Sequence record: NC_018855.1
Source: Escherichia phage HX01
Strand: one strand, 5' to 3'
Length of the DNA stretch: 64,000 bases
Shown here: positions 11,817 through 40,342 of the stretch, piece by piece
How the letters are laid out: each line of letters opens with the position of its first letter
Position numbering within the stretch: the first letter of the stretch is position 1
The notes under the pieces: generated by a model
Databases searched by the model: none
Told to the model about the DNA's origin: nothing
The model's input: the letters and a program-made list of their open reading frames with translations, nothing else
Translations under genes and position numbers: made by a program

Positions 11817-12452
11817 ATGAAAACTACTCCTATTACTATCGCTATTGACGCAATCATAAAACAAGCTTCTTCTTTGGTCGCTATGGCCAAAGTAATTAGT
11901 CAAAACCCTGCTCGTTATAATGCTATTCTAGAAACTCTTCGACGCCCAGGACTTAGTAATTATGAAAGCCGAGTAATTATTACAGGTGTTGGTAAGAATG
12001 CTAATATTGCAACTAAAGCTTCTGAGACATTTGCTTCACTCGGTATCCCGAGTATGTACTTGAACACTGGACATTATTCTCACGGTGATGCAGGATTCAT
12101 TGCGCCTAATGATGTGTTGATTCATATTAGTCGTTCTGGTAAAACTGAAGAAATGATAGGCGTGGCTAAGCATCTTAAAATGATTCGTCCGAACGTCAAA
12201 CAGATTCTGTTGCATTGTAACCCGGACATTCCACAAGAATACGAAGCTCTTTTTGATTATACGTTCTGTACAGGCATCGCAGTAGAGGTTGATGAGAATT
12301 CTCTGGCTCCGACCATGTCCACTACATTGTTGTTAGCGCTTATCGATACGTTTGCTATCAACCTTTCGTCTGAACGTGGATTTACCTCTAATGACTTCCT
12401 TAAGTTCCACCCTGGCGGTGCACTAGGTGCCATGTTACGAGGCGAACAATGA
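11817..12452 (+). CDS. SIS-domain sugar-phosphate isomerase, arabinose-5-phosphate isomerase-like (KdsD/GutQ type, no CBS domains)
   Basis: 211 aa with motifs matching the KdsD SIS domain by eye: GVGKNANIATKASETFASLG, HGDAGFI, SRSGKT, APTMSTTLLLAL, FHPGGALG. Confidence 0.7.
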   Translation: MKTTPITIAIDAIIKQASSLVAMAKVISQNPARYNAILETLRRPGLSNYESRVIITGVGKNANIATKASETFASLGIPSMYLNTGHYSHGDAGFIAPNDVLIHISRSGKTEEMIGVAKHLKMIRPNVKQILLHCNPDIPQEYEALFDYTFCTGIAVEVDENSLAPTMSTTLLLALIDTFAINLSSERGFTSNDFLKFHPGGALGAMLRGEQ

Positions 12453-12633: not shown

Positions 12634-14319
12634 ATGAAAAAAGCTGTTATTCTTGGTGCTGGACTGGCAACTCGTTTGTATCCAATAACGCATCATATTC
12701 CTAAGGTGCTTGTTAACTATAAACAAGACACTATTCTGAGCAATTTGTATACAATTTATTCTGACCTTGGCGCAGATGAAATTATTGTAGTAGTTCATTC
12801 AAAATTTGCTGAAACTGTTCGAGCTTATTGTGAGCAAGAAGGGTTCAATGTGACTATTCGTACAGTTGATGAAGCGTATGGTTCTGCTTATGCTCTTGCT
12901 AAATTGCACAAAGATTTAGACGGCCATAATGTAATTGTTAACTGGTGTGATATTATTCCTGATTTTGGTTCATGGTCTTGGAATGTTAACGCAATCTATG
13001 TTAAAGGTGACGAATGTCGATATAATTTCGACGGTGAAAATATCACTAACGTAGGTTCAACAGGTGGTAATGTTGTAGGAATTTATCAGTTCAAAGACTG
13101 GGAATTCTATATGGGTTCTACCGATGAGGAAATTCATGAATACTGCAAAGGACGTGATTTCGTAGAATTCCTTTACGGCAGTGCATTCAATAAATCAGAG
13201 CTTATGAATCTAATTGATTTAGGTGATATGCCTAAACTTGAAAAGGCTCATGAAGTTCGTGAACTTAATCGTAGTTTTAATGCCGTTGAAATTGGTGAAG
13301 AAACTGTAACTAAATTCGCATTAACCGAACAAGGCCGAGCTCTTCAGAAAGATGAGATTTCATGGTATCTTAAAGTGAAATCAGATTCAGTTCCTCAGTT
13401 AGTTTCTGTTAATGAAAATAACTTTGAAATGGAACGCATTAAAGGTAAGCCGGCATTTGAATATATTAAATCCAAATCGAGTCTTGCTCGTCCACAAATT
13501 GTTGATGCAATTTTAGATGCACTGAAATTCAGCACAGACACTTATTTTGTAAGTCCTGAAACTGTTCGTCGTGATTTCACTAAAGAATTCTATACTAAAG
13601 TTATTGATCGTTGTGAAAGTATTCAACCATTGATTGATTCATTTGGTAAAATCACACATGTGAACTACACTAAGATTGGGCGTCTGAAGCCAATGTTGAA
13701 ACAAGCTTTAGAACACCTTATTCGTTATCATAACCGTTCTCAGGGACAGTACTCTGTTATTCATGGTGACCCGAACTTCAGTAATACTATGATTACTGAT
13801 AATGGTGAAGTCAAGTTTATCGACCCTCGTGGATATTTTGGTGAAACCAAGATTTATGGACCAAAATTGTACGACGAAGCTAAAGTGCTTTATGCTGTTT
13901 CAGGTTATGATGAATTCAACGCTAATCCGACCTGGGGACAGTTTACTATTGACGAAACAACTTGTAATGTGTCTATTAACATCAATCCATTAGTTTACAA
14001 ATATGGAAAGATGAGTTCGTTTAACGAGTATCATCATTTGGCAGTGGCAATTATCTGGATTGCATTAGGTGGTTATTTCAAGAATAATCCACTTAAAGCG
14101 GTAGCCGCATATTATAAAGGTATGGAACTTCTGACTAAGCAATTACGTAACATGGGCCGTGTACTTCAGGACGGCTCTATTAGTTATGACGTAGCAGAAC
14201 CTGTAACGGCTACTCTGATTACAAAAAATCCTGGTAAATGGGTACTAACTGATAAAGAAACTGGTGTTTCCTATCGTCCAATCGGTGGCGATATCACTCA
14301 TCAATGGGAACGAATCTAA
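12634..14319 (+). CDS. bifunctional sugar-1-phosphate nucleotidyltransferase / sugar kinase fusion (putative NDP-sugar salvage enzyme)
   Basis: 561 aa. N-terminus KKAVILGAGLATRL resembles the G-x-G-T-R-L loop of sugar nucleotidyltransferases; C-terminal HGDPNFSN...FIDPRG resembles the catalytic/Mg-binding motifs of APH/choline-kinase-like kinases. GAGGA ribosome-binding site. Confidence 0.6.
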   Translation: MKKAVILGAGLATRLYPITHHIPKVLVNYKQDTILSNLYTIYSDLGADEIIVVVHSKFAETVRAYCEQEGFNVTIRTVDEAYGSAYALAKLHKDLDGHNVIVNWCDIIPDFGSWSWNVNAIYVKGDECRYNFDGENITNVGSTGGNVVGIYQFKDWEFYMGSTDEEIHEYCKGRDFVEFLYGSAFNKSELMNLIDLGDMPKLEKAHEVRELNRSFNAVEIGEETVTKFALTEQGRALQKDEISWYLKVKSDSVPQLVSVNENNFEMERIKGKPAFEYIKSKSSLARPQIVDAILDALKFSTDTYFVSPETVRRDFTKEFYTKVIDRCESIQPLIDSFGKITHVNYTKIGRLKPMLKQALEHLIRYHNRSQGQYSVIHGDPNFSNTMITDNGEVKFIDPRGYFGETKIYGPKLYDEAKVLYAVSGYDEFNANPTWGQFTIDETTCNVSININPLVYKYGKMSSFNEYHHLAVAIIWIALGGYFKNNPLKAVAAYYKGMELLTKQLRNMGRVLQDGSISYDVAEPVTATLITKNPGKWVLTDKETGVSYRPIGGDITHQWERI

Positions 14320-14705
14320 TGCACCGTGTAGAAAACATGCTTAATCTTTGTTTTGATGTCGATGATTGTATAACAGAGTGGAATAACAACCGTGATTACG
14401 TGAACTTCAAACCAGACGTCGAAATGGTGACTGCCATTAATGCCCTGTACGATGCAGGGCATACCATAACGCTTTACACTGCTCGCGGTATGAAGTCAGT
14501 CGGTCCTGGTCGTATAGCAATTGACATTCTCCCAAGTCTGATTCAGAACTTGGCAAACATTGGATTGAAGTACCATAATTTGCTAACACATAAACCAGTA
14601 TATGATTGGATTATCGACGACAAAGCTATGCGTCCTGACGAATTCAAAGCTCTTATGAATAAAGGCGAATTCGAAACATTTAAATCATATAAACCGAATC
14701 TATAA
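14319..14705 (+). CDS. small HAD-like phosphatase (tentative)
   Basis: Track start 14304 trimmed to ATG 14319 (TAATG overlap with upstream stop). FDVDD near the N-terminus, TLYTARG, HKP and DWIIDD resemble HAD motifs I-IV, but motif I is non-canonical. Confidence 0.35.
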   Translation: MHRVENMLNLCFDVDDCITEWNNNRDYVNFKPDVEMVTAINALYDAGHTITLYTARGMKSVGPGRIAIDILPSLIQNLANIGLKYHNLLTHKPVYDWIIDDKAMRPDEFKALMNKGEFETFKSYKPNL

Positions 14706-14762: not shown

Positions 14763-15923
14763 ATGAATACTTTTAAAATCGGAACGAATTTTGATTTAGC
14801 TCTTCTTGATAAAATCGTAGAGCTCAATAAAACTTATCCTAATAGCTTGATAAACGAAGTATACGGCTCTACAAGAGAAATGGCTTTTGTAGCAGCCAGA
14901 CCTGATTTTAGGCTTCCTGACGTTGACAAAAAGATGTTAGAAGATTATGTTAAACGTTGTAACGAATTAGGTATTTGCTTTAACTATACACTCAACACGA
15001 TAAATCCTGGTTCAAAAAGAGAACTAGTTGAGTGGAAGAAGAAAGCTATTCAGGATTATGTTCAGTATCTTTGGTCAATAGGCGTATGGCGTATTACTAT
15101 CGCTAACCCTGTTGTTATGGAAATTGTTCGTGAAGTCAATAAAGACATTGAGATTGAAGTTTCAACAATTCTACATGTCGATGCTGTAACTCAAATCAAA
15201 TACTTGCATGACCAATATAATATCAAAAAGGTCTGCTGTGGAATTCATAAGAACCGTTCAGTTTCTTTCCTGAAACGTGCAGCAGAGTTTTGTAATAAGA
15301 ACAATATAATATTTGAAGTTCTTGTAAATGAGTTCTGTTCTAATGCTGGTAAAGGGTACACAACACATTGTAGCTATCGTGACTCTTGCTATATTTTCCA
15401 TAGCACCGATGTTACAGTAGATGATGCCAAATCCTTAAATGGATATCCAATGCAACACTGTATTAAAGCTCGTGATACAGATCCATTTAACTGGTTGAGA
15501 ACTCGTTTTGTTCGTCCTCAAGATTTGAAACTTTATAATGATATTGGTATCACTCAATTTAAAGTTTCGGGACGTACAGGTAGCACAGACTACATTTTGA
15601 AAGTTCTTGAAGCTTATGCTTCTGAAAAGTTTGAAGGCAATTTGTTGGAATTGTGGAAGCCTTTAGAGACCATTTTCACTCTTGAAAATGAGACCGAGTT
15701 TTCACATACAGTAAATATTGAAACCTCTTTGTTAGACGGCTTTTTAGAAAAAAGGTGGTTCAAACATCCAGATTTCGATTGTGCTAATGAAATCTGCGGG
15801 ACGACGTGTACATATTGTGAAAGATATTATAAACGTCAGTTATCTAAAAATGGGTTATCAGAAAACTCTATATCTATTATTGATATAACTAACTCTGATG
15901 ACGCTTTGAGGTACCCAGAATGA
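14763..15923 (+). CDS. uncharacterized enzyme-sized protein with C-terminal Cys cluster (C-x4-C-x3-C-x2-C)
   Basis: 386-aa ORF; C-terminal DFDCANEICGTTCTYCERYY; function not assignable by eye. Confidence 0.5.
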   Translation: MNTFKIGTNFDLALLDKIVELNKTYPNSLINEVYGSTREMAFVAARPDFRLPDVDKKMLEDYVKRCNELGICFNYTLNTINPGSKRELVEWKKKAIQDYVQYLWSIGVWRITIANPVVMEIVREVNKDIEIEVSTILHVDAVTQIKYLHDQYNIKKVCCGIHKNRSVSFLKRAAEFCNKNNIIFEVLVNEFCSNAGKGYTTHCSYRDSCYIFHSTDVTVDDAKSLNGYPMQHCIKARDTDPFNWLRTRFVRPQDLKLYNDIGITQFKVSGRTGSTDYILKVLEAYASEKFEGNLLELWKPLETIFTLENETEFSHTVNIETSLLDGFLEKRWFKHPDFDCANEICGTTCTYCERYYKRQLSKNGLSENSISIIDITNSDDALRYPE

Positions 15924-16005
15924 TTTCTAGAAAAACTTTTAACCACCAACTTAACGAAGAGATTTTGACTATTAAAATTAACAGCAACGAACAAATTCTT
16001 AAAAA

Positions 16006-16024
16006 GGCCCATAAGGGCCTTTTT
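16006..16024 (+). terminator. rho-independent terminator
   Basis: GGCCC-ataa-GGGCC hairpin followed by TTTTT, about 80 nt after the stop of the 386-aa ORF. Confidence 0.55.
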
Positions 16025-16117
16025 GAAACTAAAGCGGCTAAAGTGATTAAAGAACCTGTTCAACTAGAATACTAAGCCGAAGCTCTACGTTATATCAACA
16101 TCGCTAAGAAATTCAAA

Positions 16118-16143
16118 TAAGCTTTATGAATTGAGTATATAAT
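16118..16143 (+). promoter_or_regulatory. putative middle promoter upstream of the gene-42-like ORF
   Basis: TAAGCTTTA (MotA-box-like, one mismatch) with TATAAT 11 nt downstream. Confidence 0.25.
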
Positions 16144-16161: not shown

Positions 16162-16878
16162 ATGGGAAAACATAACACAATGAAATATATTAAAGCCGCA
16201 GATTTTCAATCCGCATTTAAAGCTGTCAATCGTGAAATTTTAGAAAATCCACAGTTCATTACTGATTCTCGTATTGGACGTTGTAATGAAATTGGGTCTA
16301 TGACAGTAGTTGTTGATACCCCTTCATCATTCAAAATGACCGACCCACGTATTAATCGCATCTCTTATGAATATGCTGAAGATTTCTGGAAATTTATGAT
16401 TTCTGGTGGTACTGATGCAAAAGAAGCATTTAAGGCATATCCTAACGTCGCTAAATTTATTTCTAAACCTAAATCAGACGCTTTGCCTGCAAACTTCAAC
16501 ACTTTCTATGGTCCACGAATTGCGGCCCAGTTACCAACTCTTCTAAAAGAACTTAAAGAAAAACCTAACTCTCGAAGAGTTGTGTTCCAAATTCTAGAAA
16601 GTTCTGATCAGGCTTTGCTTGATTCAGACGAAACACTTGAATATCCATGTACTGACTCAGTGACTTATTATATTCGTGATGGTAAGCTTTATACCCACTG
16701 TCATATGCGTTCTCAGAACTGTGCTGTTGTTATGCAGTTGGATTTTTATCTCCAAGGAAAATTACTTCATTATATCGCTAACGAATGTGGTGTAGAAGTT
16801 GGTGATTATACTCATACCATGGTAAGTGCCCATGTGTTTGAACGTGATTTTGATTATGTTAAAGGATTCCTTGACTAA
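16162..16878 (+). CDS. 42: thymidylate-synthase-fold pyrimidine hydroxymethylase, divergent dCMP hydroxymethylase (gp42-like)
   Basis: 238 aa at the syntenic gene 42 position; shares the NPNSRR, CTDSVTYYIRD and MRSQN blocks with T4 gp42 (NPDSRR, CTNTVQYLIRD, MRSND) but is otherwise quite divergent. Confidence 0.6.
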   Translation: MGKHNTMKYIKAADFQSAFKAVNREILENPQFITDSRIGRCNEIGSMTVVVDTPSSFKMTDPRINRISYEYAEDFWKFMISGGTDAKEAFKAYPNVAKFISKPKSDALPANFNTFYGPRIAAQLPTLLKELKEKPNSRRVVFQILESSDQALLDSDETLEYPCTDSVTYYIRDGKLYTHCHMRSQNCAVVMQLDFYLQGKLLHYIANECGVEVGDYTHTMVSAHVFERDFDYVKGFLD

Positions 16879-17777
16879 TGGCTATTTTCCGCGTACCTAT
16901 TTTGAGTATGCGGTCTTATGAAACTGGACAGTATGCTATCCTTAAGGATGGCAACTTCCAACTTCATTTGCACCGTGCTAATCCGGGTGATGTGATTACA
17001 TATCCACGTAATGCATCTGATATTAAAGAATGTGAACGTCTTTTCCCAGAATTTAAGTTTGTTCCATTATGGTATAAAGATAACGCATATAACACTCGTA
17101 AATATTTCTGGTCTGAAAATGAATTTGTGGTTGATTCATTAATTGATTATTATGATTGTGATTTTCTAATCACAGATATCACTGGATATGACGGCACTTT
17201 TGACGTAGAATTCAATTTCAATATCACTGCAGACCCTAATAAACCACGTTTTTATATTGACGAATTCTTAAAAACCGACATGTTGTCTGTTAATCGTTCA
17301 CTTCAAACTACTGTGTTGAATGAACGTCAAAAAGAAGTGCTGGTTAACGCAGGTGCAGATGGTAATAAGATTATCGTAACGCAGAAAGTTATACGTCCTT
17401 CCATCATGCAGCGTCTTGTAGGTGATTTGGCCCCTATTCATCTAGATGGTATTTTTCATCCATTTCGAATTAGTGACCCGTGTTATCGTTTTGAACAAGT
17501 GGTTGAATGCGCAATTCAATTAGGTCAACCGCTTTATATAACCGATCCAAATAATAGCTTCGACAGAAATAAGTATCCTGAAGAAGCACTGATTCGAATT
17601 TTTAAACCAACTAAAACTGAGTACTATCAAATTCTTAAAGGAAGACCGAAGATTCAATATTTCGAAAATCCTGAAGAAGTATTCCATCCAGGTCTTGGCG
17701 AGTTCATCTACTTTAACGCTTTAATTTCTTCACCGTATAATATACCTAAATATGAAGATGTCGTAATCGAGGAATAA
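16878..17777 (+). CDS. hypothetical protein (299 aa) occupying the beta-gt slot
   Basis: ATGG overlap with the gp42-like stop; no recognisable similarity to T4 beta-glucosyltransferase. Confidence 0.5.
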   Translation: MAIFRVPILSMRSYETGQYAILKDGNFQLHLHRANPGDVITYPRNASDIKECERLFPEFKFVPLWYKDNAYNTRKYFWSENEFVVDSLIDYYDCDFLITDITGYDGTFDVEFNFNITADPNKPRFYIDEFLKTDMLSVNRSLQTTVLNERQKEVLVNAGADGNKIIVTQKVIRPSIMQRLVGDLAPIHLDGIFHPFRISDPCYRFEQVVECAIQLGQPLYITDPNNSFDRNKYPEEALIRIFKPTKTEYYQILKGRPKIQYFENPEEVFHPGLGEFIYFNALISSPYNIPKYEDVVIEE

Positions 17778-17778
17778 A

Positions 17779-18327
17779 ATGGCTAAAATTATTTTAGTAG
17801 ATGGCCCAGATAATGCTGGTAAAACAACTTTCATTAATGACATAATGGAAATTAGTGAAAGATATGTAAAGATTGATTTCCCTAAACGAACAGTTGATGG
17901 ACGTTTCGATGTTAAGTCTCGAAATGAAGTTGGCTGTTTCGAAACGATGTTGAATTATTTAGACCCTACTAAGATTTATCTGTTAGACCGTGGATATATT
18001 AGTAACTGGGTTTATGGACGTATTCGACAAGATGCGGACTCGGTTCTTGACGTTTATGAACAGGATTATGTTCGTCTTTGCCAAAACCATGATGTGTTCA
18101 CAATTATTTTAACACGTAACGAAATGACTGAAAGTTTTGAAGACGACCTTATTACTTTGTCTTCATTCGGTTTTAATACAGTCATTTCATATTTTGAAGA
18201 GTTTGCAATTCATAACGAAATCCAAACGTATCAATTACTTAATCATGATGGTGCTAACAAAGTTATAGGATTTAATGCAAGCGAACGTAATGGTTTGATT
18301 ACAGAAATTATCAAATGGGCTCGTTAA
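17779..18327 (+). CDS. P-loop nucleotide/nucleoside kinase-like protein (thymidylate-kinase-like fold)
   Basis: 182 aa; Walker A ILVDGPDNAGKTT and a DRGY motif resembling the DR(Y/H) of TMK-type kinases. Confidence 0.5.
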   Translation: MAKIILVDGPDNAGKTTFINDIMEISERYVKIDFPKRTVDGRFDVKSRNEVGCFETMLNYLDPTKIYLLDRGYISNWVYGRIRQDADSVLDVYEQDYVRLCQNHDVFTIILTRNEMTESFEDDLITLSSFGFNTVISYFEEFAIHNEIQTYQLLNHDGANKVIGFNASERNGLITEIIKWAR

Positions 18328-23425: not shown

Positions 23426-23719
23426 ATGAAAAAGTTATCATTGGCAGCAATCTTACTTGCAGTATCATGTGCACCAGCTCCAGTTACGGCAGGTTATGAT
23501 AAAGACCTCTGTGAGTGGTCAATGACTGCAAATCAAGAAGATGTTGAACAACAAATCTTCTCTGATATCATGAACATCACTAAACGAGACCGTCCTAATA
23601 TGGTTAATAAAGTTGTTGAACAACTTAAGTCTGGCGGTATCATGCAGTACAACTATGTTTTGTATTGTGACCCTAATTTCGATAACAAAGATATCGTAAC
23701 CGAAATCACAGGTGAATAA
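23426..23719 (+). CDS. sp: Spackle (Sp) periplasmic protein
   Basis: 97 aa, same as T4 Sp; signal peptide, then GYDKDLCEWSMTA...KSGGIMQYNYVLYCD closely matches T4 Sp as recalled. Confidence 0.75.
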   Translation: MKKLSLAAILLAVSCAPAPVTAGYDKDLCEWSMTANQEDVEQQIFSDIMNITKRDRPNMVNKVVEQLKSGGIMQYNYVLYCDPNFDNKDIVTEITGE

Positions 23720-23720
23720 T

Positions 23721-24371
23721 ATGATTTATTATATGCACAAAAATGCGCCATTTAAATATGGTAAATTTCCTAATGCACAATGTTATAATATAACGCCGAA
23801 CGAAAATAATAACGGATATCATATTGGTGTAATTTTTGTAATTGTTAAAGATAACGAAATCGTTGCCTGGGCAGATTTTAAAGGTACAACATATGATGTT
23901 AATCCTGTGCCTTTCACATATTACAATATAATGGATTTGGCATATGATTATAATTGGTTTAATCATGACACGTTGGCTCATATTGAAGGTGTAGGATTTG
24001 ACATCTCTTATTCTAGCTATTCATTATGTCCTATGAGCCGAGCTCACGGTAAAGATGCCTCATATTTTTCATTTCGGAAACGTGTAAACTTCAAACGTAG
24101 TACAGAGTATGTTGGTGGACTCTTTGTTAAAGATAATAAAATAACCCGTATTAGTTATCCTCTAAGTGTAGGTCAAAAAGATGTTGATGTTGATTTAGAC
24201 TTAACCGAAAATAACATTAATCATATTGCTTCTGTATATTTTGATATCGATGAAAAAATTGTAGTGTGTGGATACGAATTACCACCTGAAGAAAAGGCTG
24301 AAGCAATTGAAGTCGAATTAGAAATTTCTGTTGACGACCAAATATTTAATGCATTTATGAATCGAGGTTAA
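23721..24371 (+). CDS. hypothetical protein (216 aa), 61.2-like by position
   Basis: Track GTG start 23712 trimmed to ATG 23721. Confidence 0.5.
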   Translation: MIYYMHKNAPFKYGKFPNAQCYNITPNENNNGYHIGVIFVIVKDNEIVAWADFKGTTYDVNPVPFTYYNIMDLAYDYNWFNHDTLAHIEGVGFDISYSSYSLCPMSRAHGKDASYFSFRKRVNFKRSTEYVGGLFVKDNKITRISYPLSVGQKDVDVDLDLTENNINHIASVYFDIDEKIVVCGYELPPEEKAEAIEVELEISVDDQIFNAFMNRG

Positions 24372-26313: not shown

Positions 26314-26403
26314 AATATCTCCTTAGTTACCTTATTATTTATTACGCTTTATAAAATTAATGTTAGAATTAACTTCTCTTATACTGAATTGAAAGGAAAA
26401 ATA

Positions 26404-26925
26404 ATGGCACACTTTAACGAATGTTCACAACTTATTTCTGGTGTTGATAAAGCAGAAGAAGCTTATTTTAATGCTCTGATTCACGAAGATAAAGACCCAC
26501 TGCAGGTAATGCTTGATATGCAGAAATCTTTACAGGTTCGTCTGGCAAATGACAAGCCTGAACATAACAAACATCCTGATGAATTAGCCACTGCTGGCGA
26601 TGTTGTTGATTGGCTGCGTAATCAGAAAGATTATATTGATGATGAATTCCGTGAACTGCTGACTTCACTTGGTGGTATGAGCAATGGTGAAAAAGCCGCT
26701 AGCTCTGTATGGAAGCCGTGGAAGGCACAACATGCTGAATATCGAAATCGTCGTATCGATGAACTGTCTCCTGAAGACCAGCTTGAAATTAAATTCGAGA
26801 TGATTGATATCCTCCACTTTGTTCTGAATATGTTCCAAGGTCTGGGTCTTTCCGCTGAAGAAATCTTTAAACTGTATTACCTGAAAAACCAACACAACTT
26901 TGAACGCCAGGATAATGGTTACTGA
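26404..26925 (+). CDS. 56: gp56 dCTPase/dUTPase (dCTP pyrophosphatase)
   Basis: Track TTG start 26389 trimmed to ATG 26404; MAHFNECSQLI...PLQVMLDMQ...ETAGDVVDWLR...DDEFRELLTSLG...EDQLEIKFE closely matches T4 gp56. Confidence 0.9.
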   Translation: MAHFNECSQLISGVDKAEEAYFNALIHEDKDPLQVMLDMQKSLQVRLANDKPEHNKHPDELATAGDVVDWLRNQKDYIDDEFRELLTSLGGMSNGEKAASSVWKPWKAQHAEYRNRRIDELSPEDQLEIKFEMIDILHFVLNMFQGLGLSAEEIFKLYYLKNQHNFERQDNGY

Positions 26926-39241: not shown

Positions 39242-40342
39242 ATGAAAGTTATGTTTATCCCATCTCGTGCAGTCCCATTTAATCCTGACCGTGTACAAGG
39301 TGGTCTTGAAGCAGTACATTTAAATGTGTTGAAATATCTTGTGTCCATCGGTGCTGATATTGATTATATCGGCTTTGATAATGACACGTTTGGTGACTGG
39401 AAAGTTACACACCATCCTGTTGGTCATCTGACTAAATTTAGTCTAGGTATGAGTTATACTATGGCTCGTAAGATTGTTGAACTAGCCGGCATCCATGAAT
39501 ACGATTTTGTTGTTACTATGGAACCGACTAAACTAACCGTTCAGGCAATTAAAGACGCAGGTCTCTCTAAAGTTCATAAGAATTTTATGGCAACACCATT
39601 TGAACCGGTATCTCGTGGCATTGTTCAAATTTGGGACCAGACTATTCAAATTCATAAGAATGGTGGTAAGAGTTATGCTCCTACTAAAGCCTTCCGTGAA
39701 TTTGAACGCAAATATTGTTATATGACTTCAGGTCTGACTGACAAAATTGATTATGATTATTGGCGAGCAAATCCGTTGTTTGAAGCCGAAGATTATCCGG
39801 TTATTTGTTTGAATGAGAAACCTGAAGTTCTTCCGGCGACTGATCTGATTATTAGTGCACAACGTTATGACACTAAAATGCGTCGTACTGATGTTGCTCT
39901 TGAAGCGATTAAAGCACTAGGCGAAAATGGTGTAGGATACTGTCCAAGCAAATGGGCACCACCAGCTAAATATCCTGTTATTATTGATGCTCCACACAGT
40001 GAAATCATGGAACGTCTTAAAACAGCTAAAGCGCTTATTAATACGTGTCCTGACACAGGTACGGTAGAGAATAGTTCTATTGAAGCCATCTCTAAAGGTG
40101 TCCCTGTAATCCAGTTAGTTTTTAAGGATTATCCTCATGCGACATTCGAATACGACCCAGATACTGTGCGTGTAGAAATTGATTCCTCTACTCCTAAGAA
40201 AGAAGTAGTTGCGCTTTACACAAAAGCTGTATTAGAATTCACTGACACATACGAAGCTCGAGTTAAACGTGCTGAAGCAGTATGGAAGAAGTATAACCGA
40301 GATGCAGTTGTTGCGATGTGGGATAAAATCTTCACAGCGTAA
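39242..40342 (+). CDS. putative GT-B-fold glycosyltransferase, candidate DNA (hmC) glycosyltransferase
   Basis: 366 aa; C-terminal region GTVENSSIEAISKGVPVIQL resembles the E-x7-E donor-binding motif of GT4/GT-B enzymes. Inserted between gene 39 and rIIA.1/rIIA, where T4 has no glycosyltransferase. Confidence 0.5.
   Translation: MKVMFIPSRAVPFNPDRVQGGLEAVHLNVLKYLVSIGADIDYIGFDNDTFGDWKVTHHPVGHLTKFSLGMSYTMARKIVELAGIHEYDFVVTMEPTKLTVQAIKDAGLSKVHKNFMATPFEPVSRGIVQIWDQTIQIHKNGGKSYAPTKAFREFERKYCYMTSGLTDKIDYDYWRANPLFEAEDYPVICLNEKPEVLPATDLIISAQRYDTKMRRTDVALEAIKALGENGVGYCPSKWAPPAKYPVIIDAPHSEIMERLKTAKALINTCPDTGTVENSSIEAISKGVPVIQLVFKDYPHATFEYDPDTVRVEIDSSTPKKEVVALYTKAVLEFTDTYEARVKRAEAVWKKYNRDAVVAMWDKIFTA

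Follow-up and report, generated by a model that had tools for sequence, protein, structure and literature searches.

The window, by which we mean the whole stretch of 64,000 nucleotides that was analysed, belongs to a Mosigvirus and is 98% identical to Mosigvirus genomes. At 16162..16878 on the plus strand it contains an ATG-to-TAA ORF of 238 aa, called afhB here (predicted 5-hydroxy-dCMP synthase, homologue of RB69 gp48), with a GAGG Shine-Dalgarno sequence 5 nt upstream of its start. The encoded protein matches the thymidylate synthase families of Pfam (Thymidylat_synt, PF00303, E = 2e-15) and PHROG (PHROG 160), and BLASTP aligns it with T4 gp42 (from NC_000866) at 24% identity over 218 residues (E = 2e-12). 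A tblastn search with T4 gp42 as query found no second gp42-like sequence in the 64-kb window.

Upstream of afhB on the same strand, we infer a putative T4-type, MotA-dependent middle promoter at 16119..16143 (AAGCTTTA, 11 nt, TATAAT), judged against the MotA-type consensus. The element is invariant in four Mosigviruses, and the ORF just upstream of it decays. This ORF (15920..16075, plus strand), the homologue of RB69ORF049c, is truncated to 51 aa compared with 79 aa in RB69 as a result of a 39-bp deletion and a new stop codon, and it covers positions 1–51 of the 79 in PHROG 8601. A stable hairpin downstream of the U32 gene (15999..16026, plus strand; AAAAAGGCCC-ATAA-GGGCCTTTTT; -17.7 kcal/mol, z-score -4.4) has an invariant stem and a variable loop in four Mosigviruses and is possibly a terminator or an RNA-stability element; it was found by direct folding and was not picked up by the terminator scan. 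A scan for sigma-70 promoters returned 26 sites, against 26 expected.

The gene order around afhB is gene 43, arabinose-5-phosphate isomerase, a small ORF, nucleotidyltransferase/kinase, HAD phosphatase, U32 protein, a small ORF, afhB, a 299-aa protein, a thymidylate-kinase-like protein and uvsX, where T4 has 43, imm.1, imm, 42, beta-gt, segA and uvsX. The comparison places afhB and the next gene in the slots of T4 gene 42 and its glucosyltransferase. With homologues of the isomerase, AfhE, AfhF, both arabinosyltransferases (AraT1 and AraT2) and the kinase all present, the arabinosyl-5-hydroxycytosine cluster around afhB is complete, and all of its genes lie on the plus strand. The isomerase (11817..12452, RB69 gp55 homologue) is recognised by the NCBIfam models KpsF/GutQ (2e-32) and KdsD (1e-30) and by the annotation of phage F2. 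AfhE (12634..14319, RB69 gp52:53 homologue) combines a Pfam NTP_transferase N-terminus with a kinase-like C-terminus, is also assigned by NCBIfam, and its RB69 counterpart is reported to make UDP-arabinose (PMC13326640). AfhF (14304..14705, RB69 gp51 homologue) is a HAD-type sugar phosphatase (NCBIfam capsule biosynthesis phosphatase, 4.6e-13); in relatives its start is annotated at an ATG 15 nt further downstream. It is followed by the U32-family protein (14763..15923, RB69 gp50 homologue; Pfam Peptidase_U32, 6e-11; PHROG 5757), which has a C-terminal CX5CX3CX2C motif. Downstream of afhB lie DNA arabinosyltransferase 1 (16878..17777, RB69 gp46:47 homologue), assigned from PHROG 3891 (4e-156), synteny, the position of the T4 beta-glucosyltransferase and PMC13326640, and the thymidylate-kinase-like nucleotide kinase (17779..18327, RB69 gp45 homologue; PHROG 761, 1e-44). 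Further away are a gp56-like dCTPase of the dUTPase_2 family (26389..26925, plus strand; Pfam dUTPase_2, 1.2e-6) and DNA arabinosyltransferase 2 (39242..40342, plus strand), 363 of whose 366 residues (99%) are identical to RB69ORF003c, the protein to which PMC13326640 ties this function.

Active-site residues and family classes

The ORF was aligned with E. coli ThyA (from NC_000913), T4 gp42 and the AfhB protein of phage HY126, with positions expressed in E. coli ThyA numbering. AfhB shares with ThyA the catalytic cysteine (C163 = C146), the phosphate-binding arginine pair (R138/R139 = R126/R127) and R183/S184 (= R166/S167), and carries E160 at L143, N186 at D169 and D194 at N177. In ThyA, the residues E58, W80, D169 and G173 bind or activate methylene-tetrahydrofolate. 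Further folate-chemistry positions are replaced in AfhB by F75 (= E58), V96 (= W80) and V190 (= G173), and the protein ends without the 40-residue C-terminal tail of ThyA. The loss of folate positions and the absent tail fit a change of cofactor. The published signature takes D169N as the diagnostic of the family, N177D and L143E as common to hydroxymethylases, and Cys146 as retained (PMC13326640); all four residues are found in AfhB.

The same pattern extends to a much wider set of proteins. A search of 1.84 billion cluster representatives gave 2760 matches at E <= 0.001, and the 146 best full-length representatives, once aligned, fell into two sharply distinct classes, comprising 102 sequences of the window protein's type and 44 of the gp42/MilA type, T4 gp42 included. 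Median lengths are 240 aa and 309 aa, respectively. Position 58 is phenylalanine in 79 members of the AfhB class and never glutamate, which is invariant in the other class; W80 is replaced by alanine or valine in 90 (A in 60, V in 30), compared with a variable position that is mostly tyrosine; and in place of the invariant G173 of the gp42/MilA type, the AfhB class has V, T, I, L or M. At position 143, glutamate occurs in 99 of the AfhB class and aspartate in 42 of the others. Position 169, an invariant aspartate in the gp42/MilA type, is asparagine in 77 of the AfhB class, serine in 13, aspartate in 5, cysteine in 5 and histidine in 2, whereas aspartate at position 177 is common to both (101 of the AfhB class and all of the other). 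In addition, one member of the AfhB subfamily is naturally fused to a MazG pyrophosphohydrolase (P0159), which supports action at the mononucleotide level.

Many database records label proteins of this kind as ordinary thymidylate synthases, which would convert dUMP to dTMP, and the Pfam and PHROG family matches agree with that label. Yet AfhB has Asp instead of Asn at N177, the position that selects dUMP, its folate contacts and C-terminal tail are missing, and its scores against the NCBIfam thymidylate synthase equivalogs are far under the cut-offs (at best 70 bits vs 174.55, and 50 vs 325), leaving this reading scarcely credible.

Identity with characterised enzymes and the proposed pathway

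A sequence search of the PDB retrieved the AfhB of phage HY126 (9IQC/9IR2 and 9IQU), which is identical to the window protein at 236 of 238 residues. The two differences, I33 (V in HY126) and T125 (A in HY126), spare all signature positions, as do the five substitutions that separate the window protein from RB69ORF048c (gp48; 233/238 identical, 98%). An AF2 model of the window protein (mean pLDDT 87) has 9IQC as its best match (TM 0.94), followed by MilA and ThyA structures. The PDB entries, both released on 2025-07-16, are titled 'Monooxygenase dependent on riboflavin with dCMP and FAD' (9IQC) and 'phage HY126 dCMP hydroxylase-AfhB with substrate dCMP' (9IQU). The naming of the flavin varies by source, with FMN in the NAR paper cited below and riboflavin/FAD in the PDB titles. 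At the DNA level, the HY126 genome is among the matches at 97.6%, with its afhB copy aligning at 99%, and the 8-kb stretch around afhB is 97.5–98.3% identical to RB69-like coliphages, among them F2, AV112, PHB12, JS09, ST0 and HY126.

Biochemical evidence is available for these near-identical proteins. Expression of RB69 gp48 together with a phage dNMP kinase produced 5-hydroxy-dC in E. coli DNA (Lee et al., NAR 2026, PMC13326640). [quoted passage not shown] The crystal structure of the HY126 enzyme with flavin and its reconstitution in vitro are credited in that paper to He et al. (Nat Chem Biol 2026), and the same 5-hydroxylation has been stated independently for Mosigvirus NP (PMC13390438).

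A different product was assumed in 2018, when RB69 DNA was described as containing arabinosyl-hmC and the enzyme was taken to be a dCMP hydroxymethylase (PMC6024577). AfhB would then be a divergent gp42 orthologue that forms 5hm-dCMP with methylene-tetrahydrofolate, consistent with its place in the T4 gene 42 slot, its thymidylate synthase fold, the retained cysteine and N177D determinant for dCMP, and the annotation of several GenBank records. However, RB69 gp48, 98% identical to the window protein, yields 5hodC and not 5hmdC in a parallel comparison with T4 gp42 (PMC13326640), and the re-analysis of RB69 DNA by NMR/MS reported in that paper places the arabinose in an ether linkage directly at C5 of 5-hydroxycytosine, not on hydroxymethylcytosine. 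Flavin is bound in the crystal structure of the 236/238-identical AfhB, and E58, D169 and G173, invariant in 44 of 44 gp42/MilA-type representatives, are all replaced. The 2018 description is superseded by the newer reports on RB69, HY126 and Mosigvirus NP, and a hydroxymethylase at this locus is thus very improbable.

An AfhB-type hydroxylase with another physiological substrate or product in this phage (dUMP, CMP or a further oxidation) could be envisaged from the variation at position 169 in the wider subfamily, which implies that the chemistry may vary across the family. Given the canonical N186 and D194 and the mere two to five conservative differences from two characterised enzymes, we consider this prospect to be slight for the window protein. 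The ORF therefore almost certainly encodes AfhB, the 5-hydroxy-dCMP synthase, predicted from its near identity to these proteins to be a flavin/O2-dependent dCMP C5-hydroxylase of the thymidylate synthase fold. The earlier note on this DNA had called it a divergent hydroxymethylase of that fold in the gene 42 position, of which the divergence, the fold and the position stand and the hydroxymethylase activity does not. Its suggestion that the divergence goes with a different modification chemistry is borne out by the arabinosyl-5-hydroxycytosine cluster and by the altered cofactor and product, while the different substrate that it offered as an alternative finds no support, dCMP being the substrate as for gp42.

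In the proposed mechanism, Cys163 would add to C6 of dCMP as in thymidylate synthase and make C5 nucleophilic. C5 would then attack a flavin C4a-hydroperoxide in place of methylene-tetrahydrofolate, and elimination of the thiol would restore the ring and yield 5-hydroxy-dCMP. The supply of dCMP may be attributed to the dCTPase on the strength of the T4 paradigm and Table 1 of PMC13326640; kinases would raise 5-hydroxy-dCMP to the triphosphate for incorporation by the polymerase. The neighbouring genes would make UDP-arabinose, from which the two arabinosyltransferases would attach arabinose to the 5-hydroxyl group in DNA, and the arabinosylated genome would be shielded from restriction.

The gene, structure, activity and pathway of AfhB are already published, so the finding is known, and since all of this appeared in 2025–2026, nothing new is learned from it. 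It is of practical use for annotation: database records label the gene variously as 'dCMP hydroxymethylase', 'thymidylate synthase' or 'hypothetical protein', which is wrong or uninformative. In a broader context, AfhB shows the fold of a folate-dependent methyltransferase put to a new use in a flavin monooxygenase, and with it begins a second family of glycosylated phage cytosines (5-O-glycosyl-dC), with a bearing on the evasion of restriction and CRISPR and on phage therapy.

The U32 gene and a possible oxygen-independent route

The U32 protein encoded upstream of afhB (14763..15923) may, as a tentative proposal that we consider possible but rather unlikely, be an Fe-S, prephenate-dependent and O2-independent hydroxylase that yields the same 5-hydroxycytosine under anoxia. 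The hypothesis is based on the chemistry of the U32 family, its pairing with chorismate mutase, and the distribution of hosts. In PMC13326640, RB69 gp50 appears only as a 'sugar or heterocycle reductase' without further discussion. The known prephenate-dependent pyrimidine C5 hydroxylases belong to the U32 family. They include RlhA, an Fe-S enzyme that forms 5-hydroxycytidine in 23S rRNA with prephenate as the source of the hydroxyl group, and TrhP, which depends on prephenate and has the O2-dependent TrhO as its partner (PMC13602947). The proposed pair of AfhB and U32 protein would parallel the two routes to ho5U through TrhO and TrhP, and also RlhA, which makes ho5C in rRNA.

Two phages, PWKp16 of Klebsiella and Virsaitis27 of Erwinia, have a chorismate mutase gene, recognised by its CM_2 domain (39.5 and 44.6 bits, respectively; cut-off 27), that separates the U32 gene from afhB and overlaps each of these two genes. 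The product of chorismate mutase is prephenate. This arrangement of U32, chorismate mutase and afhB occurs in Marfavirus and Winklervirus phages, and Mosigviruses have no chorismate mutase gene. The 51-aa ORF of the window and its 79-aa version in RB69 were considered as a degenerate chorismate mutase and rejected, as they do not match CM_2 and show no resemblance in BLASTP to the chorismate mutase of PWKp16.

The U32 gene was found in 220 phage records, always with at least 80% identity, and is more conserved than AfhB. All hosts listed for U32-carrying phages are facultative anaerobes, as are the gut hosts of the RB69-like phages. Genes for AfhB and the arabinose pathway are also found in phages of Acinetobacter, a strictly aerobic host (92 records matching by tblastn), and the one cluster inspected, that of Acinetobacter phage Berthold, has neither a U32 nor a chorismate mutase gene. 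Acinetobacter does not appear in the ten host names that occur most often for U32 carriers, so that at most two such records can exist; this contrast between aerobic and anaerobic hosts amounts essentially to a single phylogenetic split, one clade against another. The Acinetobacter phages still arabinosylate their DNA.

The U32 protein sequence had no matches in the PDB, and it is only 15–22% identical to UbiU, UbiV and RlhA, too divergent for a confident assignment of Fe-S ligands. A literature search for U32, prephenate or chorismate mutase in connection with these phages, the scope of which did not extend to He et al. 2026 and Mahler et al. 2025, returned nothing relevant. If unpublished and true, the U32/chorismate-mutase route would account for DNA modification by these phages in the absence of oxygen.

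Lineage of the subfamily and comparison with known systems

Alignment gives 24% identity of AfhB to T4 gp42 and 21% to ThyA, and the high identity to gp42 that would have contradicted the claim of divergence is absent. The three blocks that had been quoted as shared with gp42 are partly accurate: CTDSVTYYIRD and MRSQN occur exactly in the ORF, but the supposed NPNSRR reads KPNSRR, and T4 gp42 has NPDSRR, CTNTVQYLIRD and MRSND at these places. Similarly, the earlier note described the neighbouring replication proteins as near-identical to those of T4, which is overstated for gp43 (62% identity), UvsX (68%) and gp41 (86%), although the contrast with the 24% of AfhB is real.

The further claim that this enzyme alone had undergone accelerated divergence does not agree with the distribution of its relatives. 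In a tblastn search of 50,697 phage records, members of the subfamily match the window protein at 67–99% identity across many Straboviridae genera and hosts; below 67% there is a gap, followed by matches of about 32% in Rhizobium and Sinorhizobium phages. The true gp42 proteins of other T4-like Straboviridae are only 24–26% identical to AfhB. The subfamily comprises about 100 clusters at 50% identity, spans several phage families and has its own fixed active-site signature. A clade with at least 90% of the AfhB class and without T4 gp42, ThyA and the gp42/MilA-type sequences was recovered in 73 of 100 bootstraps of an unrooted neighbor-joining tree built at 20–30% sequence identity. The corrected distance between AfhB and T4 gp42 (1.93) is not below the mean distance to MilA-like representatives (1.87), and in a Foldseek search with the AfhB model, MilA follows directly after AfhB, with the T4 gp42 structures outside the top 50. 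AfhB is thus no closer to gp42 than to MilA-like enzymes, and it is best read as a broad and old subfamily that belongs to a different modification cassette and sits in the position of gene 42, not as the result of recent acceleration. Divergence in situ from a T4-like gp42 in a distant ancestor is disfavoured, because the subfamily is broad, internally diverse and equally far from the MilA-type enzymes.

Compared with characterised systems, AfhB shares with T4 gp42 the thymidylate synthase fold, the dCMP substrate, the catalytic Cys, Asp at N177 and an acidic residue at L143, as well as the same genome slot with a DNA glycosyltransferase gene next to it. The two differ in their chemistry: T4 gp42, which retains E58, D169 and G173, adds CH2OH with the help of methylene-THF, whereas AfhB has F, N and V at these positions and would add OH with flavin and O2. 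After AfhB itself, the nearest structure is MilA, the CMP 5-hydroxymethylase of mildiomycin biosynthesis (PDB 5B6D, 5JNH; Foldseek E = 1e-17, TMq 0.84), which aligns with AfhB over nearly the full length and is likewise specific for cytosine nucleotides, but is only 22% identical, folate-dependent, about 80 residues longer and active on a ribonucleotide. AfhB has the same core fold and catalytic Cys as E. coli ThyA and keeps both its RS motif and the Arg pair that binds phosphate, but the two are only 21% identical, and AfhB is set apart by the exchanges N177D, D169N, E58F and W80V and by the absence of the C-terminal 40 residues. HY126 AfhB and RB69 gp48 match the window protein in length, signature residues and gene neighbourhood alike.

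The U32-family gene and the ORF beside it

Within the window, a U32-family gene homologous to RB69 gp50 (14763–15923, + strand) precedes afhB (16162–16878, + strand), which encodes the flavin- and O2-dependent dCMP 5-hydroxylase, with one small ORF separating its 3' side from afhB. Identity of the U32 gene is at least 80% in 220 of the 220 phage records carrying it, and Marfavirus and Winklervirus phages encode a true CM_2 chorismate mutase between the U32 gene and afhB (L005:4658-4903 and L006:4658-5002). The one Acinetobacter phage cluster inspected lacks the U32 gene. Together, the conservation of this gene, the adjoining chorismate mutase, and its absence from the Acinetobacter cluster suggest that the U32 protein may be a prephenate-dependent, O2-independent hydroxylase serving as a backup for the O2-dependent AfhB.

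The small ORF (15920–16075, + strand) is a homologue of RB69ORF049c, cut from 79 aa in RB69 to 51 aa here by a 39-bp deletion leading to a TAA stop. The homologues in phages F2 (49 aa, premature stop) and HY126 (40 aa, frameshifts) are also short, and the gene appears to be decaying in Mosigviruses. This ORF is not homologous to the chorismate mutase occupying the same slot in other genera.

Variability within the AfhB-like class

The AfhB-like class, defined as every cluster representative without the E58/D169/G173 triplet (E. coli ThyA numbering), has 102 members among P0121-P0270, and the "diagnostic" asparagine at position 169 (Lee et al., PMC13326640) is not universal among them (N, n = 77; S, n = 13; D, n = 5; C, n = 5; H, n = 2). 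Members carrying S, C, H, or D there may differ in their chemistry; alternatively, the published criterion may be too narrow. No member of the class retains E58 or G173, partly by construction, since the class is defined by the missing triplet. Natural fusions of the AfhB-like domain also occur in metagenomic relatives, with a histidine-phosphatase domain in four cluster representatives (P0124, P0126, P0127, and P0131) and with a MazG nucleotide pyrophosphohydrolase domain in one (P0159).

Annotation of afhB and its genomic context

Across more than 300 records, afhB annotation is inconsistent, as the gene is labelled "hypothetical protein" in phage F2 (RefSeq NC_054913.1) and thymidylate synthase or dCMP hydroxymethylase in others. 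RefSeq assigns F2 to the genus Tequatrovirus, although the modification cluster it carries shares 98% identity with the cluster of Mosigvirus-type phages. Elsewhere in the window, an ORF at 23712–24371 (+ strand) matches Pfam AdfA (anti-DarT factor A; E = 5e-122); this anti-defence gene has no relation to the AfhB finding.

Putative regulatory elements upstream of afhB

A strong hairpin, AAAAAGGCCC-ATAA-GGGCCTTTTT (15999–16026, + strand; -17.7 kcal/mol, z-score -4.4), lies within the small ORF. Its loop varies and its stem is invariant across four Mosigviruses, and it may terminate transcription downstream of the U32 gene or influence RNA stability there. A short distance upstream of afhB, AAGCTTTA followed after 11 nt by TATAAT (16119–16143, + strand) is likewise invariant across four Mosigviruses. 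This putative promoter resembles the T4 middle (MotA-box) type.
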